The translations under genes and the position numbers were made by a program. A stretch of 63,966 bases of DNA, counting the filler, from Craspedostauros australis (lineage: Eukaryota), in assembly GCA_030167865.1 (NCBI GenBank). It is 6 parts of 6 records of this genome, joined end to end, with 100 filler letters (N's around TTAATTAATTAA, not from the genome) between each part and the next. Parts side by side here need not be neighbours in the genome. Positions count along the whole stretch, not along the records: positions 13,608 to 32,041 come from JALAGF010003465.1; 5 more parts are not named here. The stretch is one strand, 5' to 3'. Positions 1,573-37,978 of the stretch are shown here, one piece after another (positions within the stretch are counted from its first letter, which is position 1; each line of letters starts with the position of its first letter). Under the pieces are notes generated by a model. That model saw nothing but the letters and a program-made list of their open reading frames with translations. It made no database searches and was not told the DNA's origin.

Positions 1573-2490
1573 TGCTATGTCATGCGATGCTATGTTCTGC
1601 CCAACGGTCATCTGCATCGGATACTGGGCCAAGCAAGTTCGCAATCGAGTGGACCCGATGGACACTTTCCTTTGGGGATGGCGTGGTTTGCAGACCACAG
1701 CACGGCACGGCACAGCACGACACGGCATAGCATAGCATAGCATGAATCAGTTGACGCCGCGCCAATGATGTTCGCAGGAAAGCAACAGTTGAAACTGAGG
1801 AGCCAAACAACAATGGCATCACGTTCCCATGGATTGGGTTGGAATGCTCTGGGAAAGCGTCCGCTGGTGACCATGCGAAAGAATAGAAGCGCGGAGTGAA
1901 TTGATGGTAGGCCAGATCACTTTGAGCAGTATAACAGGCACGCACCAAGTCTGATTTGCTTCGTTGCTGTGCGATGGGCAAGGCGCCAAAAGGGTGATAT
2001 AAACGAAACCATCGGGGATGCAACGCACATTCCTGCGGTGATGCAAGTGCATGTAACAAGCAGCACACACTGAAACATGACACACTCAGCCAATGGACTT
2101 AGTGACGATTCAGTTTGGGTCGGTCTACGTACAAGTGTTCTCAAGTCCAGGACTGTCTCGGTCATCACATTCTCCCTTCTCGTCCCATTGCAGCGATGTG
2201 ACGTAGGAATTCTATGTACCTACGCGCCTATGTTTGCAGAGGAGTCCATCTGACTCCAAGCCACGCCGTGTCATGATGGAAATGCTATACGGGAATATTG
2301 CCGTCGCATTCGAGTACCATTCTCTCCAGAGAGTAGATCATTACTACAAATTTTAGTACTCACGTGATTATATATATGTATCGACAGAGGACCATTCTTC
2401 GCACGAGAAGTCACATCTCTCAGGCTCTTATTGCAGATGTGTCGATCATGTTCACATCCGTCCAGGCTCATCAGTCTTGTCCATCCTATT

Positions 2491-3946
2491 TCAAGGACAG
2501 CAAGATGTACCGAGCTCCTCATTGCACATTCCATCCGGAATGAATTCAGCATCTGCCATGGTGAATCCATCACACGTGCACGCCTTTTCGCCAACGCAAG
2601 CTTCTGCTCCGACAACTGCGCTGACGCCCTTGCATGCGAGATCACCGATACAGGAATTGCCGGTAACTATGGAACCGATCGAGTCGCATGCTTCTGCCCC
2701 AATGCAGGAGTTTTCTCCGACAAAGACAATTTCGCCATCTTTCGCCGGAGATGCGTTGGCGCATGCTCGCGCACCGATGCACGCGGATTCACCTGTGAAG
2801 GTGAACTTGGAATCGATGCAGCTTTGGTATCCGAGGCACGATGCTTGTCCGATGGTGGAGAGGCTCAACGATGAGCAGGCATCCTCGCCGAAGCAGGAAG
2901 ATTCGCTGACGGTGGCATTCTCCGACAAGCCCAGGCATGCACGTTTGCCATGGCATGCGAATTCAGCGACGATGACTCCGGGACCATTGAGGGATTGGCA
3001 GGATTGCTCACCGTGGCAAGAGTTGATGCTCACGAAGACATCGTTGCTTCCTGCACATGCTTGTGTGCCGAAGCAAGAGTGATTCAAGACCAAGGCTTCA
3101 GAGACCCCGGAGCAGGATTGATCGCCTGTGCAGGCATCGTTGAGGATGAAAGATCCCGTCTGCAGGTCGCTGCAGGCTCCTGTTCCCGTGCAGCTGAAGT
3201 TGCCGATGAAAGAATCGGACACGCTGAGGCAGGATTGGGTGTCGGAACAGCTGCCATTGACCACAGTCATGAACATGGATGTCATGCATGCCTGTGTGCC
3301 TTGGCAACTCTCCTCACCGACGGAGGACTGCACCATGTCTTGACAGGCTTGGACGCCGTTGCATCCAGAGCGGGCGGCGGCGCTGCCCTGCACGTTCTGG
3401 CATGCTGCAGCCCCGGTGCAGCTCAAGTCTTCGAAGCTCGCGGAGACGACATCGCTGCATGCGCCTTGTCCGCGGCAGGTGCGGTTGCCGATGGCGACCA
3501 ATGTGGCATCGTCGCAGGATTGCGGGCCGATACATGAACCGTCACCCACAAAGGCTTCGATGCGGTTGCAGCCGGCGTCAATGCAGGAGTTGGATCCGAT
3601 GATCCCACGCGCATCTTTGCAAGCGCCGCCGGAAGACCCAGGCCCAGAGATGCAGGACAGTGGCCCAATGAGCGTTTGGTTGATGCCGATACAAGCGTCT
3701 GGCCCATTGCAGGATCCAGGACTCACGAAGGATGGGTTCTTCGATGAACATCGCGAGGTCTTCGTCTGGCGTCGGTTCTTCCTGAAGCGACCGTGCGCTT
3801 GATTGTGGCCGAGTGTGGGCGATCAGTCTCTTGATGGATGGATGATCCGCAACTGCCTGTGTCAGCTGATGCGGTTATCCGCTGGCCAGTGGTGCTGTCA
3901 GGGACAGGGCAGCGGCAACCTGCAAAAGGTGAGATGAGAGTTTCAT
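2491..3946 (-). pseudogene. disrupted allele of the secreted Cys-rich repeat protein
   Basis: Compared with 9106-10938: CAA>TAA nonsense codon at 3875-3877 and a net 377-bp frameshifting deletion at 3736/3739. Confidence 0.85.
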
Positions 3947-4708
3947 GGTTGCTTGTTGTCTTATCGTCGTGCTCCTACTTGATACAAGATTGTATAGAAA
4001 TGATTGTGTGGACACGACAGTCCAAGCAGATGGATTCAACTTGGTGCACTTTGTTACTGACGACGACGAGCGGCATCGATGGTGGAATAGTGAGGTACAT
4101 CTCTGCCTGCTCGTATGGTATGGTGCATGTGCTGCAATCCAGGGAAAGCATCACGTTCCTCCACACCGCATCGCAGGGCATCGCGGCACCTTGAACGCAG
4201 TCGCTCAAAATCCCACGAACCAACGACGATCAGCTCTGAAATGTGAGCCTGTCACACCCTCATCATGGCCATCATCCGATAGTGACAAAGCGCGTGCCCG
4301 CCTTGCCAAATTCATCGGTTCTTGTGGGGCCAAATTCGTGCACTCACGCTTTCCATGTCTTCGTGTCTTTGTCGCGAAATTTGTGATGGTGCCAATTTTC
4401 TCGACCAACGGAAAAATGTGACAGGAATTGTTGCTGAATTTTGAGTCATGTATATCGAGTGACACAATGATGATGATCGACTACATGGATCAAGTTTGGC
4501 AAGTCAACTTGATGTCTCCAACCATAGAACCACATCCACCCATCAAGGAAAGGAGAGACAGCAACACAGAGATCATGCCACTCCACTCCACGCTGCTCAT
4601 GCTTGTAGCCGCACAGATACACACGTTGGACTCTTGCACAAAAGATCACTGGAGGCTGCGGAATGATCGATGAGGAGATCCGGTAACGATCAATGAGAGC
4701 GTGGTCTG

Positions 4709-6394
4709 ATGATGTTTGCTATCAATGCACATTCCCGGCAATGCATGCCACGGTTGGTCGAAGGCTTGAACTCCGTGGTGCTGCGGAAGCTGTCATCAAT
4801 CTCGGCAGCGAGAGCCGTGGGGCCTCGGTCACGATGCCTTGCCGTTGGTATAAACGGCGGTGAAGGTGTCGGAGGCCGCTTCTGCACAACCGGACCCCGT
4901 CGCACGTACTCCAGCCATCGAATCGCAGCGTTCTATGCAATGCCGGCGCTGCCAGAAAGAGCATCGCCTCTGGCATCGGACAGCACTACACTACGTCACA
5001 GCTCCATCAGCACAGCAAGTTTCCGGCTTGGTCACGGATTTCAAGCCAAAGTTAGGGAGATCGTGGAAGCGCCGTTCGTGGACAAACGGAGACAACGATG
5101 GTTTTCATCCGATCAACATCAAGCAAAGGATGCGAGAGACCTACCGTTGCGGTTGTCGCTGGTTGTATCCAGACTTGCCGGCGATGGCAACCTCAGCCGA
5201 AGGCAGGCGGAGTTGCAGATCCGACGTGGGAATGTGGCGGTCAATGGCAGGACCATCACATCGCCACAGTACGATTTGAATGCCGGTGTGCGATTTGGTG
5301 CCCCAGCCATCACGGAAGACGTCGGAGATGCTCTCCCAGATGTTCGCGGTGTTGAGGAATCAGCTATATCGGGTGCAAGTGCGAACGACCATGCAGGCAC
5401 GGCGGATAAAACGGAACAGGGCATGATTGAATCACAACACAATGATGCATCATCGAGAATCACGCTGGCTCTGAAAGGCAGGACGATAGTATCCGCCGAT
5501 TCCATTGGTGAGCTGATTGAACGATACCACGCGAAACAGCAGCAGCTGGCACAGGCGTCATCGTCAGCCTCTGTGCTTCTGGACGGTGCAGGCAGTACCG
5601 ATGCCCGTATCCGCGATGACGGTACTACCCCCAAAGTATGGGCGGCACACAAGACGAAGGGAGAGCTGGTGGCCCACCACGATCCGCTCGGACGACCGAC
5701 CCTCCTGGAGCGTTTGCAACGCGGAGGCTTGGGTCAGCACGAAGTGGGTGGACGGAACGTCACGCTGAAGCCCATCGGTCGACTCGACATGATGACGGAG
5801 GGATTGATTTTGCTCACCAACTGCGGCAAGTACGCACGCGAGATGGAGCTGCCGTCATCTCAGCTGCATCGCACCTACCGAGTGCGGGTCCACGGGAGGA
5901 TCACGCCGCAGAAGCTGGAACGGCTGCGCAGCGGCGGCATGTTCCGTTGGCAGGTTCCGAATGTTAGCGGCGATGGATACCAAACAGAACAGCAGTACTA
6001 CGCCCCAATGAAGGTCCAATTGGAAGCACCGCCCCGCGGAAGAGACGGCATCTTCAAGTTCCGAACGAACAACTGGATGCAGATTACGTGTCGCGAGGGA
6101 AAGAATCGACAAATCCGCAATGCGTTGGCCAGCCTGGGTTTGACGGTGACGCGGTTGATCCGCATTTCGTTTGGCGACTACCGGCTCCACTCGATACCAT
6201 CGGGGATGGTGATTCCAGTGCCGCACAAGCCCGTCCAGTCGCAAGCCCACCGAGGCAGGAAGAACTTCGACCAGCACGTCCTGCCGCGGCAACAGCAACG
6301 GAAACGCAAGGCAGAGGCTGAGAGGAGGAACGATGCTGGCAACGCAACTGCTGAAGGAGATGAGAACGGAGGTGTGCGGTGGTTGCAAGGTTAA
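4709..6394 (+). CDS. RsuA/RluB-family rRNA pseudouridine synthase with S4 domain, probably organelle-targeted (haplotype 1)
   Basis: S4-like LSRRQAELQIRRGNVAVNG, catalytic PIGRLDMMTEGLILLTN, REGKNRQIR, TRLIRISFG; Arg/Ser-rich N-terminal extension; exact start uncertain. Confidence 0.9.
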   Translation: MMFAINAHSRQCMPRLVEGLNSVVLRKLSSISAARAVGPRSRCLAVGINGGEGVGGRFCTTGPRRTYSSHRIAAFYAMPALPERASPLASDSTTLRHSSISTASFRLGHGFQAKVREIVEAPFVDKRRQRWFSSDQHQAKDARDLPLRLSLVVSRLAGDGNLSRRQAELQIRRGNVAVNGRTITSPQYDLNAGVRFGAPAITEDVGDALPDVRGVEESAISGASANDHAGTADKTEQGMIESQHNDASSRITLALKGRTIVSADSIGELIERYHAKQQQLAQASSSASVLLDGAGSTDARIRDDGTTPKVWAAHKTKGELVAHHDPLGRPTLLERLQRGGLGQHEVGGRNVTLKPIGRLDMMTEGLILLTNCGKYAREMELPSSQLHRTYRVRVHGRITPQKLERLRSGGMFRWQVPNVSGDGYQTEQQYYAPMKVQLEAPPRGRDGIFKFRTNNWMQITCREGKNRQIRNALASLGLTVTRLIRISFGDYRLHSIPSGMVIPVPHKPVQSQAHRGRKNFDQHVLPRQQQRKRKAEAERRNDAGNATAEGDENGGVRWLQG

Positions 6395-6515
6395 CTTCGT
6401 CTCAATAGCGATGCAAATTACTTGGACCAATGAAGGCTAGAGCCTCGTCTTTGCACACTGTTGAGGCATGGAACAGCAGTGCTTCCAGAAGAGGAATAGC
6501 AACCGTGGAGGAGAG

Positions 6516-6615
6516 NNNNNNNNNNNNNNNNNNNNNNNNNNNNNNNNNNNNNNNNNNNNTTAATTAATTAANNNNNNNNNNNNNNNNNNNNNNNNNNNNN
6601 NNNNNNNNNNNNNNN
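6516..6615. other. artificial contig linker
   Basis: 44N-TTAATTAATTAA-44N, which has stops in all six frames. Confidence 0.98.
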
Positions 6616-7255
6616 AGTTGTTGGTTGCCAATTGCAGGAGGTATTCGAATCCCAGGCACGTCCCCCACACAGGCAGCGACGCATGAGGGGACATGGTTGA
6701 TGCTTCTGTGTCGACGGACGACCCGTACGATGATGATGATACTGCATCCGTGCCTCGCAGGTGCTCGCTGGGCGATGCTGAACTTCCATGGGCAACGCCG
6801 TTGCCGTCATTGGCATCAGACACGATCATCTTCCACAAGATCTTCGCGGATTCCGGCACCGCGCTGGCACCACCAGGAAAGAGGACGCCGTCCACAATGT
6901 CGTAAAGATCCGCAATCATCTCGGGTGTCGCGTCGTAGGGAATGGCGATGCTGCGCGCACCACCCATCTCCAACCATTTGGGATACGAAGAAGCGATCTG
7001 TGTCACATTCCGACCGATGTACGGCTGCGTGAGAATGCCGATGATGGGTGTGTCCAATGGCGAGTTCATCTGCAGCATGCCATCGCCTGCTTCCAGATCT
7101 GACCAGTGCGCAGGCAATGCAGACAGCACCACCTCCTCTTGCTTTGCATGATGTGTTGCCTGGCCGAGTGCTGGTCCCCACAAGGATGCCATCAACAGCA
7201 GGGAGGCTGCAGCTGTGGCTGTCGCGGGCAACGAGCATCGGCTCTTCATCATCAT
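6616..7255 (-). CDS. GGH: gamma-glutamyl hydrolase, 5' part (redundant copy)
   Basis: Same sequence as 1-640 at offset 6615. Confidence 0.85.
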
Positions 7256-8001
7256 GCTGTTGCTTCTGCTTCTGCTGGTGGTCGTCGTCGTCGTGGAATT
7301 CTGTTCGTGTCTCTTGTGTTTGACCTTGGCGGTTGCTGATTGTGACAGAGTCATTCATCCAGCAGTGCATCAGGATCCTTGCTGCTGTTGTTGCCGCGAC
7401 TGCCGCTCGAAGTCCACGATGGTTCGTCGCTGCTTCATCAATGTCAAAGAAGAGGGGAAGAGGGGAACGACAACAGAACGCTCCAGAACAAAAGAACGAA
7501 GTTTGTTGTCCTCCTTTGTTCGGTCGGAGGCAGTCGGCAACCATCAGTCCGATGAGTCGATTTCCGTCATCATTCATGACTCGAAGGCATGAATGGATCA
7601 AGTCTGACACGGCCGTTACGGACATCACAATCTTTGCGGTGATGTGTGACAAGATACCTTTTCGTCTCTCCGACCTCTTCGTGCGAACAAGAGAGAGAGA
7701 AGGGAGGAACACAGGCGCGCAAGAGAGGACCGCATGTACGGGTCACATGCCCAGCAACCAGAGAGACAGAGAAAGCAAGAGCAACAACAAGATCGGCACC
7801 ACTCAATTGGAGTGACAGCATTCAACGTCGACGACTATCTCGTGGAACGAATACGACTAGGAAAAGCGGCATCGCAAGGGCAGAGCTGAAGCTTCAACAG
7901 TATTCGGCAGAGGGGAGGGAAGGCGCACGACAAGACCAACGCAGAAGCGCGGTCTGAGCAGAGCAAGCCACTCCAAGAACTAACACAAGGAAACAGCCAT
8001 C

Positions 8002-8187
8002 ATGCCAAGCAACGAGGACGTTGAGAACATCGGCGAAGAGCAGCCAAGGGAGCAGCGCGAGGGGCAGCTATCGGGACGAGAATTGCGACAGCGACGTGAG
8101 AAACGGAATCTGTGCCTTGGAGTCGTCGCGATGGTCGTGGTTGGGATAGTTGCCGGGACGTTGCTGTACTACTTCCTGGTGGAGTAA
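8002..8187 (+). CDS. 61-aa putative tail-anchored microprotein (copy 2)
   Basis: Identical translation to 1387-1572. Confidence 0.4.
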   Translation: MPSNEDVENIGEEQPREQREGQLSGRELRQRREKRNLCLGVVAMVVVGIVAGTLLYYFLVE

Positions 8188-9105
8188 TGCTATGTCATGC
8201 GATGCTATGTTCTGCCCAACGGTCATCTGCATCGGATACTGGGCCAAGCAAGTTCGCAATCGAGTGGACCCGATGGACACTTTCCTTTGGGGATGGCGTG
8301 GTTTGCAGACCACAGCACGGCACGGCACAGCACGACACGGCATAGCATAGCATAGCATGAATCAGTTGACGCCGCGCCAATGATGTTCGCAGGAAAGCAA
8401 CAGTTGAAACTGAGGAGCCAAACAACAATGGCATCACGTTCCCATGGATTGGGTTGGAATGCTCTGGGAAAGCGTCCGCTGGTGACCATGCGAAAGAATA
8501 GAAGCGCGGAGTGAATTGATGGTAGGCCAGATCACTTTGAGCAGTATAACAGGCACGCACCAAGTCTGATTTGCTTCGTTGCTGTGCGATGGGCAAGGCG
8601 CCAAAAGGGTGATATAAACGAAACCATCGGGGATGCAACGCACATTCCTGCGGTGATGCAAGTGCATGTAACAAGCAGCACACACTGAAACATGACACAC
8701 TCAGCCAATGGACTTAGTGACGATTCAGTTTGGGTCGGTCTACGTACAAGTGTTCTCAAGTCCAGGACTGTCTCGGTCATCACATTCTCCCTTCTCGTCC
8801 CATTGCAGCGATGTGACGTAGGAATTCTATGTACCTACGCGCCTATGTTTGCAGAGGAGTCCATCTGACTCCAAGCCACGCCGTGTCATGATGGAAATGC
8901 TATACGGGAATATTGCCGTCGCATTCGAGTACCATTCTCTCCAGAGAGTAGATCATTACTACAAATTTTAGTACTCACGTGATTATATATATGTATCGAC
9001 AGAGGACCATTCTTCGCACGAGAAGTCACATCTCTCAGGCTCTTATTGCAGATGTGTCGATCATGTTCACATCCGTCCAGGCTCATCAGTCTTGTCCATC
9101 CTATT

Positions 9106-10938
9106 TCAAGGACAGCAAGATGTACCGAGCTCCTCATTGCACATTCCATCCGGAATGAATTCAGCATCTGCCATGGTGAATCCATCACACGTGCACGCCT
9201 TTTCGCCAACGCAAGCTTCTGCTCCGACAACTGCGCTGACGCCCTTGCATGCGAGATCACCGATACAGGAATTGCCGGTAACTATGGAACCGATCGAGTC
9301 GCATGCTTCTGCCCCAATGCAGGAGTTTTCTCCGACAAAGACAATTTCGCCATCTTTCGCCGGAGATGCGTTGGCGCATGCTCGCGCACCGATGCACGCG
9401 GATTCACCTGTGAAGGTGAACTTGGAATCGATGCAGCTTTGGTATCCGAGGCACGATGCTTGTCCGATGGTGGAGAGGCTCAACGATGAGCAGGCATCCT
9501 CGCCGAAGCAGGAAGATTCGCTGACGGTGGCATTCTCCGACAAGCCCAGGCATGCACGTTTGCCATGGCATGCGAATTCAGCGACGATGACTCCGGGACC
9601 ATTGAGGGATTGGCAGGATTGCTCACCGTGGCAAGAGTTGATGCTCACGAAGACATCGTTGCTTCCTGCACATGCTTGTGTGCCGAAGCAAGAGTGATTC
9701 AAGACCAAGGCTTCAGAGACCCCGGAGCAGGATTGATCGCCTGTGCAGGCATCGTTGAGGATGAAAGATCCCGTCTGCAGGTCGCTGCAGGCTCCTGTTC
9801 CCGTGCAGCTGAAGTTGCCGATGAAAGAATCGGACACGCTGAGGCAGGATTGGGTGTCGGAACAGCTGCCATTGACCACAGTCATGAACATGGATGTCAT
9901 GCATGCCTGTGTGCCTTGGCAACTCTCCTCACCGACGGAGGACTGCACCATGTCTTGACAGGCTTGGACGCCGTTGCATCCAGAGCGGGCGGCGGCGCTG
10001 CCCTGCACGTTCTGGCATGCTGCAGCCCCGGTGCAGCTCAAGTCTTCGAAGCTCGCGGAGACGACATCGCTGCATGCGCCTTGTCCGCGGCAGGTGCGGT
10101 TGCCGATGGCGACCAAGGTGGCATCGTCGCAGGATTGCGGGCCAATACACGAACCGTCACCCACCAAGGCTTCGATGCGGTTGCAGCCGGCGTCAATGCA
10201 GGAGTTGGATCCGATGATCCCACGTGCATCCTTGCAAGCGCCGCCGGAAGACCCAGGCTCAGAGATGCAGGACAGTGGCCCAATGAGCGTTTGGTTGATG
10301 CCGATACAAGCGCCTGGTCCATTGCAGGATCCAGGACTCACGAAGGATGGGCTCGTGTCTTCGCACGCTGCTTCGTATGTACCGTCGCCATTGATTCCAC
10401 CGATGCAAGAGTGATCGCAGGAAATGGCCTGGGACAGTTCTGGGAACATGGGGGGCTCGATACGACCCATGCCACGATCGACCTCGTCAACATCTCCGTC
10501 GTCCTCCTTCATCGACTTGCCGGACTTTCCCGAGTCCCCGCTCTTGGACTGCTTGGGGGCCTTCGTCATGTCGTCGAAGGATGACTTCGGACTCTTGGAG
10601 CCCGCGATGGCCTTCGGAAGCTTGGTGCCCTCCTGCCCTGGATCGACCATTTCAGGTGACTTGGACGACTTCGTCCTCCGGTTGGAAACCGTGGAGACGT
10701 CATTGTTGAGGAAGAAAGGATGGCAGTTTCCTTCGATGAACATCGCGAGGTCTTCGTCTGGCGTCGGTTCTTCCTGAAGCGATCGTGCGCTTGATTGTGG
10801 CCGAGTGTGGGCGATCAGTCTCTTGATGGATGGATGATCCGCAACTGCCTGTGGCAGTTGCTGCGGTTGTCCGCTGGCCAGTGGTGCTGTCAGGGACAGG
10901 GCAGCGGCAACCTGCAAAAGGTGCGATGAGAGTTTCAT
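9106..10938 (-). CDS. secreted Cys-rich tandem-repeat protein (610 aa) with RXL site and KXXK-rich linker
   Basis: ATG at 10938 opens a signal peptide MKLSSHLLQVAAALSLTAPLASG; RSL at 10777-10785; KSSK/KSPK/KAPK/KQSK/KSGK/KSMK motifs; about 20 repeats of (S/A)CxGxx(A/S)C at 16-21 aa spacing. Confidence 0.85.
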   Translation of the reverse strand: MKLSSHLLQVAAALSLTAPLASGQPQQLPQAVADHPSIKRLIAHTRPQSSARSLQEEPTPDEDLAMFIEGNCHPFFLNNDVSTVSNRRTKSSKSPEMVDPGQEGTKLPKAIAGSKSPKSSFDDMTKAPKQSKSGDSGKSGKSMKEDDGDVDEVDRGMGRIEPPMFPELSQAISCDHSCIGGINGDGTYEAACEDTSPSFVSPGSCNGPGACIGINQTLIGPLSCISEPGSSGGACKDARGIIGSNSCIDAGCNRIEALVGDGSCIGPQSCDDATLVAIGNRTCRGQGACSDVVSASFEDLSCTGAAACQNVQGSAAARSGCNGVQACQDMVQSSVGEESCQGTQACMTSMFMTVVNGSCSDTQSCLSVSDSFIGNFSCTGTGACSDLQTGSFILNDACTGDQSCSGVSEALVLNHSCFGTQACAGSNDVFVSINSCHGEQSCQSLNGPGVIVAEFACHGKRACLGLSENATVSESSCFGEDACSSLSLSTIGQASCLGYQSCIDSKFTFTGESACIGARACANASPAKDGEIVFVGENSCIGAEACDSIGSIVTGNSCIGDLACKGVSAVVGAEACVGEKACTCDGFTMADAEFIPDGMCNEELGTSCCP

Positions 10939-11700
10939 GGTTGCTTGTTGTCTTATTGTCGTGCTCCTACTTGATACAAGATTGTATAGAAATGATTGTG
11001 AGGACACGAAAGTCCAAGCGGATGGATTCAACTTGGTGCGCTTTGTTGTTGACGACGACGAGCGGCATCGGTGGTGGAATAGTGAGGTACATCTCTGCCT
11101 GCTCGTATGGTATGGTGCATGTGCTGCAATCCAGGGAAAGCATCACGTTCCTCCACACCGCATCGCAGGGCATCGCGGCACCTTGAACGCAGTCGCTCAA
11201 AATCCCACGAACCAACGACGATCAGCTCTGAAATGTGAGCCTGTCACACCCTCATCATGGCCATCATCCGATAGTGACAAAGCGCGTGCCCGCCTTGCCA
11301 AATTCATCGGTTCTTGTGGGGCCAAATTCGTGCACTCACGCTTTCCATGTCTTCGTGTCTTTGTCGCGAAATTTGTGATGGTGCCAATTTTCTCGACCAA
11401 CGGAAAAATGTGACAGGAATTGTTGCTGAATTTTGAGTCATGTATATCGAGTGACACAATGATGATGATCGACTACATGGATCAAGTTTGGCAAGTCAAC
11501 TTGATGTCTCCAACCATAGAACCACATCCACCCATCAAGGAAAGGAGAGACAGCAACACAGAGATCATGCCACTCCACTCCACGCTGCTCATGCTTGTAG
11601 CCGCACAGATACACACGTTGGACTCTTGCACAAAAGATCACTGGAGGCTGCGGAATGATCGATGAGGAGATCCGGTAACGATCAATGAGAGCGTGGTCTG

Positions 11701-13386
11701 ATGATGTTTGCTATCAATGCACATTCCCGGCAATGCATGCCACGGTTGGTCGAAGGCTTGAACTCCGTGGTGCTGCGGAAGCTGTCATCAATCTCGGCAG
11801 CGAGAGCCGTGGGGCCTCGGTCACGATGCCTTGCCGTTGGTATAAACGGCGGTGAAGGTGTCGGAGGCCGCTTCTGCACAACCGGACCCCGTCGCACGTA
11901 CTCCAGCCATCGAATCGCAGCGTTCTATGCAATGCCGGCGCTGCCAGAAAGAGCATCGCCTCTGGCATCGGACAGCACTACACTACGTCACAGCTCCATC
12001 AGCACAGCAAGTTTCCGGCTTGGTCACGGATTTCAAGCCAAAGTTAGGGAGATCGTGGAAGCGCCGTTCGTGGACAAACGGAGACAACGATGGTTTTCAT
12101 CCGATCAACATCAAGCAAAGGATGCGAGAGACCTACCGTTGCGGTTGTCGCTGGTTGTATCCAGACTTGCCGGCGATGGCAACCTCAGCCGAAGGCAGGC
12201 GGAGTTGCAGATCCGACGTGGGAATGTGGCGGTCAATGGCAGGACCATCACATCGCCACAGTACGATTTGAATGCCGGTGTGCGATTTGGTGCCCCAGCC
12301 ATCACGGAAGACGTCGGAGATGCTCTCCCAGATGTTCGCGGTGTTGAGGAATCAGCTATATCGGGTGCAAGTGCGAACGACCATGCAGGCACGGCGGATA
12401 AAACGGAACAGGGCATGATTGAATCACAACACAATGATGCATCATCGAGAATCACGCTGGCTCTGAAAGGCAGGACGATAGTATCCGCCGATTCCATTGG
12501 TGAGCTGATTGAACGATACCACGCGAAACAGCAGCAGCTGGCACAGGCGTCATCGTCAGCCTCTGTGCTTCTGGACGGTGCAGGCAGTACCGATGCCCGT
12601 ATCCGCGATGACGGTACTACCCCCAAAGTATGGGCGGCACACAAGACGAAGGGAGAGCTGGTGGCCCACCACGATCCGCTCGGACGACCGACCCTCCTGG
12701 AGCGTTTGCAACGCGGAGGCTTGGGTCAGCACGAAGTGGGTGGACGGAACGTCACGCTGAAGCCCATCGGTCGACTCGACATGATGACGGAGGGATTGAT
12801 TTTGCTCACCAACTGCGGCAAGTACGCACGCGAGATGGAGCTGCCGTCATCTCAGCTGCATCGCACCTACCGAGTGCGGGTCCACGGGAGGATCACGCCG
12901 CAGAAGCTGGAACGGCTGCGCAGCGGCGGCATGTTCCGTTGGCAGGTTCCGAATGTTAGCGGCGATGGATACCAAACAGAACAGCAGTACTACGCCCCAA
13001 TGAAGGTCCAATTGGAAGCACCGCCCCGCGGAAGAGACGGCATCTTCAAGTTCCGAACGAACAACTGGATGCAGATTACGTGTCGCGAGGGAAAGAATCG
13101 ACAAATCCGCAATGCGTTGGCCAGCCTGGGTTTGACGGTGACGCGGTTGATCCGCATTTCGTTTGGCGACTACCGGCTCCACTCGATACCATCGGGGATG
13201 GTGATTCCAGTGCCGCACAAGCCCGTCCAGTCGCAAGCCCACCGAGGCAGGAAGAACTTCGACCAGCACGTCCTGCCGCGGCAACAGCAACGGAAACGCA
13301 AGGCAGAGGCTGAGAGGAGGAACGATGCTGGCAACGCAACTGCTGAAGGAGATGAGAACGGAGGTGTGCGGTGGTTGCAAGGTTAA
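11701..13386 (+). CDS. RsuA/RluB-family pseudouridine synthase (haplotype 2)
   Basis: Identical translation to 4709-6394. Confidence 0.9.
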   Translation: MMFAINAHSRQCMPRLVEGLNSVVLRKLSSISAARAVGPRSRCLAVGINGGEGVGGRFCTTGPRRTYSSHRIAAFYAMPALPERASPLASDSTTLRHSSISTASFRLGHGFQAKVREIVEAPFVDKRRQRWFSSDQHQAKDARDLPLRLSLVVSRLAGDGNLSRRQAELQIRRGNVAVNGRTITSPQYDLNAGVRFGAPAITEDVGDALPDVRGVEESAISGASANDHAGTADKTEQGMIESQHNDASSRITLALKGRTIVSADSIGELIERYHAKQQQLAQASSSASVLLDGAGSTDARIRDDGTTPKVWAAHKTKGELVAHHDPLGRPTLLERLQRGGLGQHEVGGRNVTLKPIGRLDMMTEGLILLTNCGKYAREMELPSSQLHRTYRVRVHGRITPQKLERLRSGGMFRWQVPNVSGDGYQTEQQYYAPMKVQLEAPPRGRDGIFKFRTNNWMQITCREGKNRQIRNALASLGLTVTRLIRISFGDYRLHSIPSGMVIPVPHKPVQSQAHRGRKNFDQHVLPRQQQRKRKAEAERRNDAGNATAEGDENGGVRWLQG

Positions 13387-13507
13387 CTTCGTCTCAATAG
13401 CGATGCAAATTACTTGGACCAATGAAGGCTAGAGCCTCGTCTTTGCACACTGTTGAGGCATGGAACAGCAGTGCTTCCAGAAGAGGAATAGCAACCGTGG
13501 AGGAGAG

Positions 13508-13607
13508 NNNNNNNNNNNNNNNNNNNNNNNNNNNNNNNNNNNNNNNNNNNNTTAATTAATTAANNNNNNNNNNNNNNNNNNNNNNNNNNNNNNNNNNNNN
13601 NNNNNNN
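13508..13607. other. artificial contig linker
   Basis: 44N-TTAATTAATTAA-44N. Confidence 0.98.
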
Positions 13608-14618
13608 TTGGTCGCCATCGGCAACCGCACCTGCCGCGGACAAGGCGCATGCAGCGATGTCGTCTCCGCGAGCTTCGAAGACTTGAGCTGCACCGGGGCT
13701 GCAGCATGCCAGAACGTGCAGGGCAGCGCCGCCGCCCGCTCTGGATGCAACGGCGTCCAAGCCTGTCAAGACATGGTGCAGTCCTCCGTCGGTGAGGAGA
13801 GTTGCCAAGGCACACAGGCATGCATGACATCCATGTTCATGACTGTGGTCAATGGCAGCTGTTCCGACACCCAATCCTGCCTCAGCGTGTCCGATTCTTT
13901 CATCGGCAACTTCAGCTGCACGGGAACAGGAGCCTGCAGCGACCTGCAGACGGGATCTTTCATCCTCAACGATGCCTGCACAGGCGATCAATCCTGCTCC
14001 GGGGTCTCTGAAGCCTTGGTCTTGAATCACTCTTGCTTCGGCACACAAGCATGTGCAGGAAGCAACGATGTCTTCGTGAGCATCAACTCTTGCCACGGTG
14101 AGCAATCCTGCCAATCCCTCAATGGTCCCGGAGTCATCGTCGCTGAATTCGCATGCCATGGCAAACGTGCATGCCTGGGCTTGTCGGAGAATGCCACCGT
14201 CAGCGAATCTTCCTGCTTCGGCGAGGATGCCTGCTCATCGTTGAGCCTCTCCACCATCGGACAAGCATCGTGCCTCGGATACCAAAGCTGCATCGATTCC
14301 AAGTTCACCTTCACAGGTGAATCCGCGTGCATCGGTGCGCGAGCATGCGCCAACGCATCTCCGGCGAAAGATGGCGAAATTGTCTTTGTCGGAGAAAACT
14401 CCTGCATTGGGGCAGAAGCATGCGACTCGATCGGTTCCATAGTTACCGGCAATTCCTGTATCGGTGATCTCGCATGCAAGGGCGTCAGCGCAGTTGTCGG
14501 AGCAGAAGCTTGCGTTGGCGAAAAGGCGTGCACGTGTGATGGATTCACCATGGCAGATGCTGAATTCATTCCGGATGGAATGTGCAATGAGGAGCTCGGT
14601 ACATCTTGCTGTCCTTGA
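13608..14618 (+). CDS. 3' part of the Cys-rich repeat protein (redundant copy, 5'-truncated by contig edge)
   Basis: Reverse complement of 2491-3501. Confidence 0.85.
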   Translation: MVAIGNRTCRGQGACSDVVSASFEDLSCTGAAACQNVQGSAAARSGCNGVQACQDMVQSSVGEESCQGTQACMTSMFMTVVNGSCSDTQSCLSVSDSFIGNFSCTGTGACSDLQTGSFILNDACTGDQSCSGVSEALVLNHSCFGTQACAGSNDVFVSINSCHGEQSCQSLNGPGVIVAEFACHGKRACLGLSENATVSESSCFGEDACSSLSLSTIGQASCLGYQSCIDSKFTFTGESACIGARACANASPAKDGEIVFVGENSCIGAEACDSIGSIVTGNSCIGDLACKGVSAVVGAEACVGEKACTCDGFTMADAEFIPDGMCNEELGTSCCP

Positions 14619-15536
14619 AATAGGATGGACAAGACTGATGAGCCTGGACGGATGTGAACATGATCGACACATCTGCAATAAGAGCCTGAGAGATGTGACT
14701 TCTCGTGCGAAGAATGGTCCTCTGTCGATACATATATATAATCACGTGAGTACTAAAATTTGTAGTAATGATCTACTCTCTGGAGAGAATGGTACTCGAA
14801 TGCGACGGCAATATTCCCGTATAGCATTTCCATCATGACACGGCGTGGCTTGGAGTCAGATGGACTCCTCTGCAAACATAGGCGCGTAGGTACATAGAAT
14901 TCCTACGTCACATCGCTGCAATGGGACGAGAAGGGAGAATGTGATGACCGAGACAGTCCTGGACTTGAGAACACTTGTACGTAGACCGACCCAAACTGAA
15001 TCGTCACTAAGTCCATTGGCTGAGTGTGTCATGTTTCAGTGTGTGCTGCTTGTTACATGCACTTGCATCACCGCAGGAATGTGCGTTGCATCCCCGATGG
15101 TTTCGTTTATATCACCCTTTTGGCGCCTTGCCCATCGCACAGCAACGAAGCAAATCAGACTTGGTGCGTGCCTGTTATACTGCTCAAAGTGATCTGGCCT
15201 ACCATCAATTCACTCCGCGCTTCTATTCTTTCGCATGGTCACCAGCGGACGCTTTCCCAGAGCATTCCAACCCAATCCATGGGAACGTGATGCCATTGTT
15301 GTTTGGCTCCTCAGTTTCAACTGTTGCTTTCCTGCGAACATCATTGGCGCGGCGTCAACTGATTCATGCTATGCTATGCTATGCCGTGTCGTGCTGTGCC
15401 GTGCCGTGCTGTGGTCTGCAAACCACGCCATCCCCAAAGGAAAGTGTCCATCGGGTCCACTCGATTGCGAACTTGCTTGGCCCAGTATCCGATGCAGATG
15501 ACCGTTGGGCAGAACATAGCATCGCATGACATAGCA

Positions 15537-15722
15537 TTACTCCACCAGGAAGTAGTACAGCAACGTCCCGGCAACTATCCCAACCACGACCATCGCGACG
15601 ACTCCAAGGCACAGATTCCGTTTCTCACGTCGCTGTCGCAATTCTCGTCCCGATAGCTGCCCCTCGCGCTGCTCCCTTGGCTGCTCTTCGCCGATGTTCT
15701 CAACGTCCTCGTTGCTTGGCAT
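15537..15722 (-). CDS. 61-aa putative tail-anchored microprotein (copy 3)
   Basis: Identical translation to 1387-1572. Confidence 0.4.
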   Translation of the reverse strand: MPSNEDVENIGEEQPREQREGQLSGRELRQRREKRNLCLGVVAMVVVGIVAGTLLYYFLVE

Positions 15723-16468
15723 GATGGCTGTTTCCTTGTGTTAGTTCTTGGAGTGGCTTGCTCTGCTCAGACCGCGCTTCTGCGTTGGTCTTGTCGTGCG
15801 CCTTCCCTCCCCTCTGCCGAATACTGTTGAAGCTTCAGCTCTGCCCTTGCGATGCCGCTTTTCCTAGTCGTATTCGTTCCACGAGATAGTCGTCGACGTT
15901 GAATGCTGTCACTCCAATTGAGTGGTGCCGATCTTGTTGTTGCTCTTGCTTTCTCTGTCTCTCTGGTTGCTGGGCATGTGACCCGTACATGCGGTCCTCT
16001 CTTGCGCGCCTGTGTTCCTCCCTTCTCTCTCTCTTGTTCGCACGAAGAGGTCGGAGAGACGAAAAGGTATCTTGTCACACATCACCGCAAAGATTGTGAT
16101 GTCCGTAACGGCCGTGTCAGACTTGATCCATTCATGCCTTCGAGTCATGAATGATGACGGAAATCGACTCATCGGACTGATGGTTGCCGACTGCCTCCGA
16201 CCGAACAAAGGAGGACAACAAACTTCGTTCTTTTGTTCTGGAGCGTTCTGTTGTCGTTCCCCTCTTCCCCTCTTCTTTGACATTGATGAAGCAGCGACGA
16301 ACCATCGTGGACTTCGAGCGGCAGTCGCGGCAACAACAGCAGCAAGGATCCTGATGCACTGCTGGATGAATGACTCTGTCACAATCAGCAACCGCCAAGG
16401 TCAAACACAAGAGACACGAACAGAATTCCACGACGACGACGACCACCAGCAGAAGCAGAAGCAACAGC

Positions 16469-17863
16469 ATGATGATGAAGAGCCGATGCTCGTTGCCCGC
16501 GACAGCCACAGCTGCAGCCTCCCTGCTGTTGATGGCATCCTTGTGGGGACCAGCACTCGGCCAGGCAACACATCATGCAAAGCAAGAGGAGGTGGTGCTG
16601 TCTGCATTGCCTGCGCACTGGTCAGATCTGGAAGCAGGCGATGGCATGCTGCAGATGAACTCGCCATTGGACACACCCATCATCGGCATTCTCACGCAGC
16701 CGTACATCGGTCGGAATGTGACACAGATCGCTTCTTCGTATCCCAAATGGTTGGAGATGGGTGGTGCGCGCAGCATCGCCATTCCCTACGACGCGACACC
16801 CGAGATGATTGCGGATCTTTACGACATTGTGGACGGCGTCCTCTTTCCTGGTGGTGCCAGCGCGGTGCCGGAATCCGCGAAGATCTTGTGGAAGATGATC
16901 GTGTCTGATGCCAATGACGGCAACGGCGTTGCCCATGGAAGTTCAGCATCGCCCAGCGAGCACCTGCGAGGCACGGATGCAGTATCATCATCATCGTACG
17001 GGTCGTCCGTCGACACAGAAGCATCAACCATGTCCCCTCATGCGTCGCTGCCTGTGTGGGGGACGTGCCTGGGATTCGAATACCTCCTGCAATTGGCAAC
17101 CAACAACTACATTGATATCCTCGAATCTGGCTTCGATTCGCACAACATTAGCCTGCCACTGGAGAATGTCAAGAAGCAGCTGCTGTACCGCAATGCCATC
17201 ACGTACAGCATCGTCACTAGATACAACGTCACAATGAATAGTCACCGTCAGGGTATCTCACCGAAGCGTTTTTTGGACACTCCGGATCTCACCAAGTACT
17301 GGATGATCACATCCACCAGCAAGGACCGGCAGGGACGCGAATTCGTCTCGACCATCGAACCCAACGACCCTCGCAGATTCCCGGTCTATGGCGTTCAATT
17401 CCATCCGGAGAAGAACGCCTTCGAAAACGGAAGGAACAAGGCAGATCCCAGCATTCCCTACCAAGCCATCGATCATTCGGCACGTGGTCTGGCTGCGGTG
17501 ACGATGGAACAGGTGCTGTACTTCACTGGGATTGTGCGCGCACATAAGCATAAACGCCGTCAGCAACGATCGCAAGAAACGTTGGACAAGATCGATCGTC
17601 TACAGCAGACGTCTCCATGGTTGTTCCGTCCCGTGTACCTGTACCCTACGCACCCCGACGTGTACTTTGAACAGATCTACGTCGTGCCGTTGGTAAGTGA
17701 ACTCGAGCAGAAAGCACCACCGAACAACGACGGCAATACTGCTTCCGGGCACACAGCGACTGCGGATATTGTCGCGGCCATGTCGTACTCCGAGATCATC
17801 GCGAGCGCTGCCCAGCGGTTTGTTGATGCTCTGCTCCTTGTGAAGATTCGTGCTGCATACTAG
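16469..17863 (+). CDS. GGH: gamma-glutamyl hydrolase (peptidase C26, class I glutamine amidotransferase fold)
   Basis: PIIGILTQP, SYPKWLEMGGAR, DGVLFPGG, nucleophile PVWGTCLGFE, YGVQFHPEK catalytic His; hydrophobic signal-like segment after MMMKS; upstream ATG 16370 is an alternative start. Confidence 0.92.
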   Translation: MMMKSRCSLPATATAAASLLLMASLWGPALGQATHHAKQEEVVLSALPAHWSDLEAGDGMLQMNSPLDTPIIGILTQPYIGRNVTQIASSYPKWLEMGGARSIAIPYDATPEMIADLYDIVDGVLFPGGASAVPESAKILWKMIVSDANDGNGVAHGSSASPSEHLRGTDAVSSSSYGSSVDTEASTMSPHASLPVWGTCLGFEYLLQLATNNYIDILESGFDSHNISLPLENVKKQLLYRNAITYSIVTRYNVTMNSHRQGISPKRFLDTPDLTKYWMITSTSKDRQGREFVSTIEPNDPRRFPVYGVQFHPEKNAFENGRNKADPSIPYQAIDHSARGLAAVTMEQVLYFTGIVRAHKHKRRQQRSQETLDKIDRLQQTSPWLFRPVYLYPTHPDVYFEQIYVVPLVSELEQKAPPNNDGNTASGHTATADIVAAMSYSEIIASAAQRFVDALLLVKIRAAY

Positions 17864-18198
17864 CAAGTGGAGCAGATCAACGCGGAGCACAGAACGTAGA
17901 AGCAGACTGGCAGATAGGAGAAGATCATGCACACCGCAGCATCAGGCAACACAAACTGACAGGACTACAAACAGCTGCTTGTCGGAAACAGATTAATGGC
18001 GAATAGTAGTGATTCGAAGAAGTACGCACGAGCTATTCCTCTGGTTTGCACCGTCCGAGCACTGTATCGATCGTTCCAAGTATCACTCTTTGCACTTCGC
18101 CCTTCATGTTTGGCTTCGCTCTCGGACTGAGCTTCTTCGTCAAGCGTAGAGTGCAGCAATCCCCGTCAGTGGAGTTGTGAGACATTGGCCGATGCTGT

Positions 18199-18555
18199 TG
18201 TTAAAATAGCGCGCTGCGGAATCGAACCACGGAGCCAGTCCACGCCTTGCATGAACACAAGAAATTAACGCTTATAACCCATGTCGCGACACCCTCCCTA
18301 ATTCTTGGATTCATGCCCTTGAGCCCCCTTATCATGAGGACCCCCCACACTCTATTTTTATACTGCCGCTGTAGGCAGTCGGCAAGTTTCGGGTGTTTCT
18401 GTGTGTTTTTGTAGCAGGGGTGGGTACCAGCCGACGGAATCGAACCTTAGGCCACGCTACCATGTTAAAATAGCGCGCTGCGGAATCGAACCACGGAGCC
18501 AGTCCACGCCTTGCATGAACACAAGAAATTAACGCTTATAACCCATGTCGCGACA
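18199..18555 (-). mobile_element. TRIM (miniature non-autonomous LTR retrotransposon), 357 bp
   Basis: Identical 93-bp TG...CA direct repeats at 18199-18291 and 18463-18555; flanking duplication TGCTGT at 18193-18198 and 18556-18561; minus-strand PBS TGGTAGCG at 18462-18455; PPT AGGGAGGG at 18299-18292; no ORF. Confidence 0.92.
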
Positions 18556-19544
18556 TGCTGTGACGCTGCGTACTGGAGAAACGGCGCGAAAGATGATTCT
18601 CGGCGATTGTATTCGACTTGGTCGTGGGATACTCATAGACTATGATGAAATGAACGACTTCCATTGCGAGTACGAGGAGACGACAACCACAAAACCAGAC
18701 AGGACACTACAAGAACACAACGGATCGGTCGACACGGAACCACGACATCCTCGAGCACGCTCGCATCAACGTACGCAAACACACTATTTGACAGAGCCAT
18801 ACGCTTTTCGATGGATGTGCTGCATGTCTCCACCCCCTGTATAATGTTGCGCAACAGCTTCCCTGATTGGGATGTACTATTCCATACGAGGACGGATGGA
18901 ACTCACTGATGGATCACGAGGATGCCGGAGATGAAGCAACAGGATATTGTTATGTGAATGCCAAAGACGGCAATGGCGACAATGGACAAAAATGGCGGTG
19001 GTCTTGCGCAATGGAGCATTTGGTAGATGATGCCAGCGTGGCCGTGCGAGTAAGCGACGAACACGAACAAACAAGCAAAGAGATTGGTCGGCATTCGCGG
19101 CTGGATTTGACACGCGGGTCTTCCCCTCGCACGCGCCCGCAGCGAGCAACGCGTAAAGGATCCATCGTCACTGCGCTACTTTCTCACAGTGATTCACTCT
19201 CAACTGACGTCCAGCAACTTCAGGAAGAGAGAGAGAGAGACGACCTTGAACAAAAATACATCGAAGGAATGAGGAGGCTGCTCTGTGATTACATTTGCAT
19301 TTTCGTAGCTTGAAGCAGAGTATGTACTCCACGTGCCTGCAATTGCAAACGAATGTCGATCCAGCTTGTCAGTCAAGGTACAAAGAGGATGGAGTTTCAG
19401 CTCTATTCTCTAACACCAGCAGTATCTGAAGTGCATTGCGCTGCATCATGCGATTCTCCTGCAAGTCTTCGTGTACAGTGCTCACTCACATGAACGAATA
19501 GTCATCGACTCGCACTGCTTTCCTCTCATCCATTCAACCAAATC

Positions 19545-32141: not shown

Positions 32142-32209
32142 CCCCCCCCACGCTAGCGTAAGCTAGCGGAAAGAATCGACTCTGTCGTAACAGAGAGGAC
32201 GGGTAACCG

Positions 32210-35200
32210 TCAACCTCCGACATAAAACGGCCTAACCCGACCCATGATGAGGTCGGTATGTCGATGGAACAAGACAATCGACGTCTGTTTGGTGCACACG
32301 TCCGACGCATTCAGATCCGAAGCCACGTCCGCGATGAGTATGAGATCACGCTCCACCCAGTCGCAGACTGCAAACGTGCGAATGTCGATGTGCCTTGAGT
32401 TCTTCGTGGGCTGGCTGGCATTCGCCATCATCCGAGCTCCCCTGTTATCCTCGTAAAGAAGCGTGGCGTGCTGTTGGGGCACGCCAATTTCGTCGAGGAT
32501 TGAGCGGAGCCAGAGTGCCATCCTGCCAGCATCGCTGGCCGCAACAAACTCGGCCTCAGAGCTGCTGAGAGCAATGGTAGGCTGGATCCGAGTCTTCCAA
32601 GCAATGGCAGCGCCGCCAAAGAGATATACGATGCCAGTGGTCGACCGCCGGTGGCGCGTGTCGGAGCCCCAATCCGCGTCAACGTACCCGTACAAGGACG
32701 ACGCCTGTATGGTGTCTTGGTCAGCCACCTGGTGCGACTTGTCAGCAGAAGGGGACATTCGTCGCGGATCAGGAACCTGAGGTAGCTGCAGAACCGGCTG
32801 TGCACGCCAGTAGGTGATGCCATGTGTGCGAGTAGCAGCCACATACCGAAAGAGATATTTCACAGCCTCGTAGTGGATTCTGGCAGGGTTGATGGAGAAC
32901 TGACTGAGCTTGACAACCGGAAAGGAGATGTCAGGTCTGCATGACACCATCGCCCAGATGAGTTCACCGATAGCCTGCCGATAGCTGAAAAATTCAGACT
33001 GAAGTGCAGCACGCTCGCCATCGTCATCAGGACCCACACCTTGGTCAAGCTTGCGGATATACCCACTGTCAGACCGCATGGGAAGGCGTTGCGATGACCT
33101 CAGGTCACTCCAATCGTGGCGTGCCAGCACTTTGTTGATATACGTAGTGCAATGGACAGTGATGTGATGGCGCCCCTGCGTAAGGTCCAGGCCATTGTAG
33201 TGAGAGAAAATGCCATGACGTGTGATAGGTTGACGCAGCCGTTGATCGAGCATGTCGCAAAAGACTTGGAACGAATGTTCCATTGCCGTCGCAACAGCAA
33301 AGTCGTCCACTTGCCGTAGGACGTAGAGCTTGTGCCCATCAATGGACCCAGTGTATAGGCACGGAGCATGAGTGGTGGCAGCAAACCCCATCTCCTTGAG
33401 CATCCCATTAACGTGGAGACTCCACTGTCGAGGTGCTTCCGGGTGGCCCTGCAAGTTCTTGAGAACAGGCACCACTGCATTGCGGCCAAGGTGAACCCCA
33501 TGTTTGTGTTGCCACCAGCTGCGAAAGGGAGCATCCGCACGCATGTAGTACCGCTGAGCACTGGCGGGTGCCTCTGCAAAAGCATTCGCAACATCCGCAC
33601 CAAAGACAAGGAGCCCTTGAATAGCAGCAATTGCCACCAGGAGCCTGAATTCGGTGAGATCAGGTGTCGCCGCATAAGTATGGCCAAACACTCGGACGCT
33701 GCCGCCGCGGGTGGATCCGTCGCAAACTGCTCGAGCCTTCTTGCGATTGTTCTCGTGCGTTTTGACCACGTAGACCCAGACCCAATTGAAGATGGCAGCA
33801 TCGCGCGGCGCGTCAACAGGAGTCCCAAACATGCCTTGATGATGATACTGATCCAACTGCTTGAACTCAGCCTGTTGCCATTCCTCCCAGTCATCACGTT
33901 GAAGGAGCATTCGGCGGCTCAGCTTGGGAGCTGCATGCACCTGATTCGCCGCAGGCTGCACATCATCAAGAATCCCGCGAATATGCCGGAGCTGATCAAA
34001 GTACAGCTGAGGGACCCCTCGCTGCGACAGCGCATTGCGCACCTCATCAAAGGCGAAGATGGCGTCGCACTGAGTCAAGCCACCCTTACGAGCATTGGCC
34101 ACAGCGAGAGCGAGGTCTTCCATGGTGTGCACCGGGCTGTCATGGAACTGCAGCAGATGCGCATTCCGCATGCGAGTGCGCCAGCGAGGAATGCGCGCAG
34201 CTTTGGACCCTGGACGGCACCGCACCAGCTGCAGACGGCCGCGAGCGTCATCGTAGGAAAACTCCAAGCCAGCCGTGTCATCGTCGCCGGTGATGTCGAT
34301 GGTCTGAGCAAAAGCAAGGTCGAACGGATCACCTGCCATGACAACAATGTCCGAACTGGGCGATGCCGGAATAGAACAGGCAGCAGCCGCAGCATGGATA
34401 TCATCTGTGTCGCGAGTGATGGACTCGATGCACTCAAGAGGTAGACTGGTGCGACCTGGTTCATGTTTGTCCGGTACCTTGACACCATCAGACTCGACTT
34501 CCATCTCGAAGCCAAGCTCGAAGAGCAATTGAGGTCCAGGTGGGCGCTCAGTGGAAGAGAAGTGAGCCTCGTCAAAGACGATGTTGCCCGCAGTCTTGAT
34601 CCGTCCTGAGTCCAGGTCGTAGTACTCATGAAGCGATGGAGTAGCTGTGTGCCCCACAAATATGCCATCATAAGTGTGCACATCCAGCTTGGCTGCGGGA
34701 TACCCAGGTTTGCGAACCGTCACACGTGATCCAAACACCCGCAAGTGACTGACGTCGGGCTTCACACCATGTTGGAGCTCGTAGGGTGTAGCGTCGATGG
34801 ATTTGTGCCACAAGCGGTTCTTGATATACACGGCATGTACAAGAGCTCTGGCCCAGAAGCGCGGATGAAGTCCAGAGGAGTACAGCAGCGCTCGAGTCAT
34901 GACACCAAAGGTGCGGTTGAGACGTTCCACCTTGCCGTTCATCCACGAGCAGCCAGCACCGGTGGGTTCGAGGTTGTACCCAGCAGACTGTACAATCTCT
35001 TGGAACGCACTGGACCGAGCGAGTTCTCCACCGGTGTCGACTCGCACCGCACGGTGACCATCGCGCCGCCCAAAGTCGCGCAAGAGCTTCGAAAAGATGT
35101 CCACAGGCGGCGACCGATCCTTGGTGGGGAATACCCACGTGTACCGAGTGTATGCATCTGTCACCAACAGGTAGGATGTGAATCCCTCCAACGACTGGAC

Positions 35201-37839: not shown

Positions 37840-37978
37840 GTTGGAGCGAAGCGAAGGGAAGAGGAGAAGGGGCAGGGAAGAGATACCACTGAGTGTAAGG
37901 GAATGGAACGTCCTTGAACACAAAGCGCGAGGAGAGGAGAGCGCGAAAGGCTATAACCTGTCAGTATCTGAGGGGAAC

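Follow-up and report, generated by a model that had tools for sequence, protein, structure and literature searches.

What primes reverse transcription of a short non-coding LTR element in Craspedostauros australis whose LTRs each carry a stretch that resembles a tRNA? Known primers of LTR retroelements are a host tRNA, a tRNA half or, as in Tf1, the transcript's own 5′ end; the Tf1 primer is the first 11 bases of its own transcript, cut by the element's own RNase H. The element studied here lies in a joined stretch of 63,966 nucleotides from assembly GCA_030167865.1, fillers included (hereafter the window). The original prediction placed a tRNA-like Pol III module inside both LTRs of this TRIM and regarded it as a possible tRNA analogue of Cassandra. 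Priming was listed there as one of several roles, but the pairing between the module and the element's own PBS was missed, and it is this pairing that forms the subject of the present analysis.

Results and discussion

Repeat search and copy comparison delimited a non-coding TRIM of 357 bp on the minus strand of the window (18199..18555), which we named family A. Its 93-bp LTRs, the 5′ LTR with TG...CA ends (18463..18555, minus strand) and the 3′ LTR (18199..18291, minus strand), are 100% identical direct repeats enclosing an internal part of 171 bp. The PBS, TGGTAGCGTG (18453..18462, minus strand), opens with TGG and abuts the terminal CA of the LTR, while a polypurine tract precedes the 3′ LTR (18292..18305, minus strand). 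A 6-bp target-site duplication flanks the whole (left copy 18193..18198, right copy 18556..18561). The window copy thus has the size (less than 1 kb), the two LTRs and the lack of coding capacity of a TRIM, and family A as a whole has the PBS, polypurine tract, target-site duplication and dispersed copies. Its neighbours are a peptidase C26 gene on one side and an ankyrin frame on the other, and no empty insertion site was found within the window.

A genome search returned 24 family A matches, corresponding to 13 two-LTR loci, 7 single-LTR loci, 3 second hits in the same loci and 1 chimera. The 6-bp duplication was present in all 13 two-LTR loci (one reads 8, inside a TC repeat) and was exact in 2 of the 7 single-LTR loci. 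Copies are 92–100% identical, and family A is a young, recently mobile element. Four of the solo LTRs, in L019, L020, L022 and L023 (about 1501-1594), have the same flanks and are one old insertion amplified within another repeat. Behind the module, intact copies have TTTTA, whereas TTTTG stands in these four, in the solo LTR of L016 and in the chimera; TTTTG is also what most host tRNA terminators show. The first ten bases of the A LTR (18546-18555 and 18282-18291) form a perfect palindrome, lacking in the two other families described below, which by its sequence might be a dimerisation or integrase signal. An internal hairpin common to families A and B, with one compensatory pair change (18363..18378, minus strand), is a candidate packaging signal.

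The module string quoted in the original prediction was found in both LTRs. We delimited it as 40 nt on the minus strand at 18471..18510 (5′ LTR) and at 18207..18246 (3′ LTR, where neither PBS nor downstream B box stands behind it). Specifically, the family A module comprises a 6-bp acceptor, a 9-nt linker carrying an A-box-like TGG.CT.G, a 4-bp T-stem with a 7-nt loop and a discriminator A (18471 in the 5′ copy), followed directly by TTTT (18467..18470 in the 5′ LTR and 18203..18206 in the 3′ LTR, minus strand). A G.G mismatch occupies tRNA position 7:66 and the anticodon arm is absent. The T-loop 11-mer has B-box sequence (18482..18492 in the 5′ module and 18218..18228 in the 3′ module, minus strand). 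As predicted, this 11-mer, GGTTCGATTCC, occurs exactly three times in the window (18228-18218, 18446-18436 and 18492-18482, minus strand), two of these being the same LTR copy. When one mismatch is allowed the window count rises to 6, whereas shuffled sequences average 1.09 and none of 100 gets as far as 6. The 11-mer is unchanged in 28 of the 30 family A LTRs tallied (altered in 2) and the 3′ acceptor strand is altered in none; because the copies are so nearly identical, this conservation is a weak test of selection.

The predicted arrangement of T-arm and acceptor is there, but ARAGORN made no tRNA call in the window and the best Rfam match was a T-arm fragment of tmRNA scoring 16.7 bits against a gathering score of 70; the Rfam search of the window gave no 5S rRNA match up to E 10. 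Folding of the isolated 40-nt module yields the acceptor-like stem (mean pair probability 0.88), which is missing from the whole-LTR fold of the window copy (P 0.01). Neither the module (z = +0.94, 41-nt L002 copy) nor the whole window LTR (z = +1.11) is unusually stable compared with shuffles.

Two further families were available for comparison, neither of them found via module-PBS pairing. Family B, which came to light through locus L014, is a 364-bp TRIM with 97-bp LTRs (L089 1501-1864; L090 883-1246). Among its 12 matches, 2 copies are intact and 1 is damaged, the others including the chimera and solo LTRs; in its module a small GGU-loop hairpin replaces the D arm, and the T4 run is absent. 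Family C, found with a pattern that places a B box ahead of a PBS, is a 594-bp TRIM with 182-bp LTRs, a 5-bp duplication and a B box inside U5 (L100 1362-1955), and its 9 matches include 1 full copy and solo LTRs. A 5-bp duplication was seen in 4 of 5 family C loci, as against 6 bp in A and B, and family C was probably moved by a different autonomous element. The internal parts of A and B are homologous (alignment score 51 against a shuffle mean of −43, sd 12), so these two families are not independent, whereas the similarity of A to C, a family with one full copy, is at most marginal (score −33, shuffle maximum −29). All three modules have the same layout, with a 6-bp acceptor, the G.G mismatch, a discriminator A and TGG.CT.G at +5; the loop of the C module, TGCAATC, is not a B box. 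A search for more families (B box behind a PBS) gave 22 matches, of which 6 loci belonged to neither A nor B and showed no direct repeats. A metagenome scan returned 5 loci, none with LTRs and some being phage-like tRNA clusters, and a viral-contig scan with the shared internal motif gave no match.

The layout of the Pol III signals separates the T-loop from the putative promoter. A B box starts 64–68 nt after the module start (+65 in A, +68 in B, +64 in C), behind the PBS in A and B, where it exists only with the 5′ LTR, and inside the LTR in C; in the window copy it is the third 11-mer (18436..18446, minus strand). Its distance from the A-like motif is 60 (A), 63 (B) and 59 nt (C), compared with 42–59 nt in host tRNAs, while the T-loop copies lie merely 14 and 18 nt from that motif, which is itself weak in family A. 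As tRNA-like spacing is found only there, the post-PBS copy is the likely TFIIIC box. The LTR 11-mer, predicted to be a B box, has the sequence of one, but its short spacing and the non-B-box loop of family C make it more likely a structural T-loop. In turn, the first run of four or more T behind host tRNA genes was T4 in 21 of 38 copies checked, five or more T in 15 and absent within 25 nt in 2, and in three host Ser genes T4 directly follows the discriminator, as it does in family A. By this comparison the T4 after the family A module appears to be a host-type terminator, possibly a leaky one, in keeping with the predicted Pol III link and tRNA mimicry. On the sense strand, T4 occurs in A at the LTR ends only, not at all in B and once in C, 40 nt after the module.

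The 3′ end of the module, extended by CCA, pairs with the PBS of its own family over 10 bp in A (one G.U), 9 bp in B and 14 bp in C. Predicted duplex energies are −17.8 (A), −22.1 (B) and −29.8 kcal/mol (C), against −15.6, −19.9 and −17.7 kcal/mol for the best host tRNA on each PBS, whose best anchored runs are 8 (A), 7 (B) and 8 bp (C). The own module therefore ranks first by energy and by anchored run in all three families among 41 candidates (38 host tRNA ends and 3 modules), the host set being incomplete at 39 distinct 3′ ends, many of them organellar; its margin over the best host tRNA is merely about 2 kcal/mol in A and B. A crude estimate of the chance of such runs beyond TGG is 0.002 (A), 0.004 (B) and 0.00002 (C), assuming uniform bases and with A and B not independent. 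The pairing is in tRNA register, the discriminator A lying opposite PBS position 4 when counted from the T-loop, yet CCA is encoded behind the discriminator in none of the families (TTT in A, TGT in B, GAT in C). Between A and B, acceptor positions 2 and 3 differ on both strands and in the PBS. Overall, acceptor 5′ strand, acceptor 3′ strand and PBS match three ways in all three families, and the module-PBS complementarity changes in step across them. In C the pairing extends beyond the acceptor to 3 nt of the T-stem 3′ strand; a PBS that merely copied the 5′ acceptor strand would lack this, and we count it in favour of a self-encoded primer. Among 13 A-type elements the PBS is identical in 11, altered in one at position 11 (outside the paired stretch) and, in the chimera, carries a G.U-compatible change at position 7. 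A lasting G.U pair in PBS-A is allowed by the precedent of Ty1 and Ty3, whose short PBS is not copied from the primer, as stated in excerpts of PMC5371799.

Complementarity to host tRNA-iMet, proposed as a check in the original prediction, amounted to 7 Watson-Crick pairs between its 3′ end and PBS-A, so that the own module with 10 bp fits better; at least 3 gene copies of this tRNA were seen, among 20 of 30 matches. An iMet guessed to end in the complement of PBS-A had no match, the real host iMet end being different. We also searched by pattern for a host tRNA end that would pair fully with a PBS, G.U allowed. For A/B this gave 7 matches (control 6), and scanning 4 of the loci, representing all 3 distinct matched sequences, gave no tRNA; for C, the 10 matches were 9 C LTRs and 1 non-tRNA. 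These patterns require GGTTCRA-type loops and the assembly is fragmented, such that a matching host tRNA could escape them.

The best reading of these observations, to which we give about an even chance, combines Pol III transcription with a self-encoded, CCA-tailed primer of reverse transcription. TFIIIC would bind the short A-like motif of the module together with the downstream B box, and Pol III would start near the module start of the 5′ LTR. A stop at T4 would release a pre-tRNA-like RNA of about 44 nt, whereas read-through would give the genomic RNA. The mimic would be trimmed by host RNase Z, plus RNase P if a leader is present, and tailed by the CCA-adding enzyme, as for mascRNA; the predicted primer RNAs, non-templated CCA included, measure 43, 47 and 51 nt. 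The tailed RNA would then anneal to the PBS, its CCA reading the TGG, inside a particle of an autonomous element whose reverse transcriptase would extend it. In the read-through RNA the 5′ module would meanwhile pair with the PBS as a fold-back that protects this module from trimming, until the tailed primer takes its place. Against a self-encoded primer stand the absence of a T4 run in B, the position of C's T4 40 nt downstream, and the size of the module, which is far smaller than mascRNA and one acceptor pair short.

The fold-back itself may offer another account. In read-through RNA the pairing of module and PBS in cis is predicted with P 0.95-0.99 for families A and B, and with about 0.7 for C, and it could by itself select for the complementarity. 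The element would then be a Helenus-like TRIM whose module is a degenerate tRNA-derived piece of a Pol III promoter, with the 3′ strand pairing to the PBS in cis so as to shield the RNA or time initiation, and with a host tRNA priming through a short match. Such a scheme, the main rival reading though rather unlikely in our view, agrees with the high probability of the cis hairpin in A and B, with a PBS that retains TGG like that of any tRNA-primed element, with the 7-8-bp anchored runs available from host tRNAs, with the conserved Pol III spacing, and with the match of Helenus PBSs to host tRNAs in excerpts of Kojima 2024 (PMC10886601). It leaves the tRNA register, the 6-bp acceptor and the kept discriminator A without a need, and it demands three different host tRNAs, none of which fits fully in the incomplete host set. 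Moreover, the C module lies 58 nt from its PBS and the match nevertheless ends exactly at the discriminator. With the cost of the cis fold-back charged, net binding of host iMet is +6.5 kcal/mol on A, that is, the host primer would be blocked, and +2.0 on B. The same charge bears on the self-encoded primer: CCA adds 4.3 (A), 4.6 (B) and 7.6 kcal/mol (C) to binding by the own module, and its net trans binding, as modelled, would be marginal in A (−1.7 kcal/mol), unfavourable in B (+1.8, counting 9 anchored pairs only) and strong in C (−12.9).

An origin as a relic is improbable. Capture of part of a tRNA or SINE, together with a short tandem duplication, would here have produced module and PBS region, their complementarity being a by-product and the module at most a promoter. 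The stretch after the LTR in A and B does look like the module's 5′ part repeated in shortened form, with the acceptor 5′ strand ahead of the box, and folding is no better than shuffles in A (z +0.94) and C (z +0.23). However, the differences between A and B would require parallel changes at three sites, the T-stem pairing of C would not be produced, and the CCA register and the constant box position of +64 to +68 would go unexplained. Least probable is bipartite priming by tRNA-iMet as in Ty1/Ty3, the alternative raised in the original prediction, with 7 bp at the PBS and the iMet T-arm on the boxes: it draws on the 7 Watson-Crick pairs with PBS-A and on a T-arm that comes second among 39, level with tRNA-Arg at −19.7 kcal/mol, on the A LTR box, and is possible for family A alone, but across the three families the T-arm ranks 2, 5, 7, 26 and 22 of 39 for the five boxes (the last three being those of B and C), the boxes stand in tRNA sense rather than antisense so that any T-arm pairs with them, iMet makes only 5 bp with PBS-B and 4 Watson-Crick pairs with PBS-C (6 bp including G.U), and the module-PBS covariation is unexplained.

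A chimera of families A and B is a further point in favour of the self-encoded primer. Locus L014 (1154-1603; G000 C6500:8783-9232) joins A and B head-to-head with U3 ends at both termini. It is a single insertion, bounded by one 6-bp duplication, that combines an A LTR with PBS positions 1-10 and antisense B; the B part runs from within the 3′ module to the first base of the 5′ LTR, and the join is in PBS register. This structure suggests particle sharing between the two families, with the end of a B module annealing to an A PBS and being extended there. The junction is A-like at PBS position 6 and neither A- nor B-like at position 7, and because these positions are not B-like, L014 does not prove a CCA-tailed B primer. 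Template switching of B plus-strand DNA, guided by 3-4 nt of homology, fits equally well. The chimera is known from the assembly alone; one contig-only run, of uncertain kind, contained A and B pieces and no contig spanning the L014 junction.

No autonomous partner was found: a search with the exact PBS-A directly after CA gave 13 matches, 11 of them TRIM copies and 2 without LTR context. A 640-base contig (run X1 record 4) has another polypurine tract fused to the first 30 A-LTR bases (compare L014 1574-1603) and perhaps represents a sister or autonomous element missing from the assembly, where that combination was absent (11 of 11 matches were family A; 0 of 199 loci). The window itself contains a Copia element (32150-37990, minus strand) with separate gag-like and pol frames, an RVT_2 match, a seemingly very short upstream LTR and a downstream end lost in an N gap. 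The PBS of this Copia, GGTTATAGCC, is similar to the host iMet anticodon loop read as complement, as in half-tRNA priming, and is an anticodon-loop type unlike PBS-A. Together with tRNAs of plastid and mitochondrion type, this Copia PBS points to a probable diatom host. A supplement to Maumus 2009 (PMC2806351) lists target duplications of diatom Copia groups that may bear on the partner.

Elsewhere in the window, positions 1-17900 contain a three-gene block two to three times, once inverted, around N gaps. The block consists of peptidase C26, a Cys-rich repeat protein and a pseudouridine-synthase-like frame, the last two named by eye, and its repeats reflect either segmental duplication or redundancy of the assembly. 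A leucine-rich-repeat-like frame, also named by eye, is present in two diverged copies of opposite orientation, at 40101-41612 (minus strand) and 52102-53763 (plus strand).

Relation to known systems

The predicted tRNA analogue of Cassandra stands as tRNA mimicry but is not new as a type: TRIMs with tRNA-derived LTR sequence have already been published as Helenus/TRIMp3 (Kojima 2024, PMC10886601). As described in excerpts of that paper, Helenus shares with family A the short non-coding LTR element with PBS, polypurine tract and target duplication, LTRs that both hold a GGTTC-bearing tRNA-like sequence, transcription presumed to be by Pol III, and a size range (311-1263 bp) that includes 357 bp. 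Family A has the box B (GGTTC) of Helenus, though in a module too short for ARAGORN or the Rfam tRNA model. Box A (TRGCY...YGG) does not stand at tRNA spacing from the LTR box B, the distance in A being 14 nt. According to the same excerpts, the Helenus PBS matches a host tRNA and is not complementary to the tRNA-like sequence, and a home-made tRNA primer was considered and rejected on that ground; here the own module is complementary to the PBS and is its best match in all three families, no host tRNA fitting fully in the incomplete host set. The families described here also differ from Helenus, as excerpted, in having no anticodon arm, a promoter-spaced B box downstream of the module, and, in A and B, duplications of 6 bp rather than 4-5 bp (5 bp in 4 of 5 C loci). 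Hosts named for Helenus in those excerpts are fungi, animals and one plant, and six diatom or stramenopile words had no match in one supplement of PMC10886601. The element works like TRIMp3 but is not filed under Helenus because PBS, box spacing and duplication length differ.

Cassandra and Ajax, the 5S-derived TRIMs in excerpts of PMC10886601, likewise carry small-RNA-derived Pol III signals in the LTR, but such 5S-derived boxes are absent here. For Cassandra, transcription starts and ends inside the modules of the two LTRs, which we only propose for family A; the primer of Ajax is host tRNA-Leu (excerpts of PMC10886601). The self-priming retrotransposons Tf1 and sushi are tRNA-independent (excerpts of PMC5371799), and as in these the primer would come from the element's own RNA. 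Unlike in Tf1/sushi, the PBS matches the module 3′ end and not the putative transcript 5′ end, and a non-encoded CCA and host tRNA enzymes would be needed. Ty1 and Ty3 use host tRNA-iMet and complementary boxes (excerpts of PMC5371799), whereas the boxes here are in tRNA sense. A model for maturation of the module is offered by mascRNA/menRNA, small tRNA mimics with acceptor, T stem-loop and reduced D loop, on which RNase P, RNase Z and the CCA enzyme act (excerpts of PMC11693755). This is a likeness of working only, with no homology claimed: in those excerpts the mimics derive by cleavage from long non-coding RNAs of vertebrates, retain a stem equivalent to the anticodon stem and play no part in priming. 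In literature that largely excludes subscription journals, we found no paper on a self-encoded tRNA-like primer and no relevant title on diatom TRIMs or PBSs.

Conclusions

We propose, with confidence evenly balanced between belief and doubt, that a group of LTR retrotransposons encodes in each LTR a minimal, anticodon-less tRNA, which would be matured and CCA-tailed by host tRNA-processing enzymes and used as a private primer of reverse transcription, module and PBS co-evolving like key and lock. If, instead, the module serves in cis fold-back and a host tRNA primes, the finding would amount to less: TRIMp3 elements in a host group new for them, with a promoter split in an unusual way. If the proposal of a self-encoded primer is true, priming by a host tRNA and self-priming of the Tf1 type would be joined by a third route, and its RNAs would be among the smallest natural substrates of tRNA 3′ processing (40-48 nt). 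The element would thereby be freed from the host tRNA pool and escape control exerted via tRNA supply or tRNA fragments.
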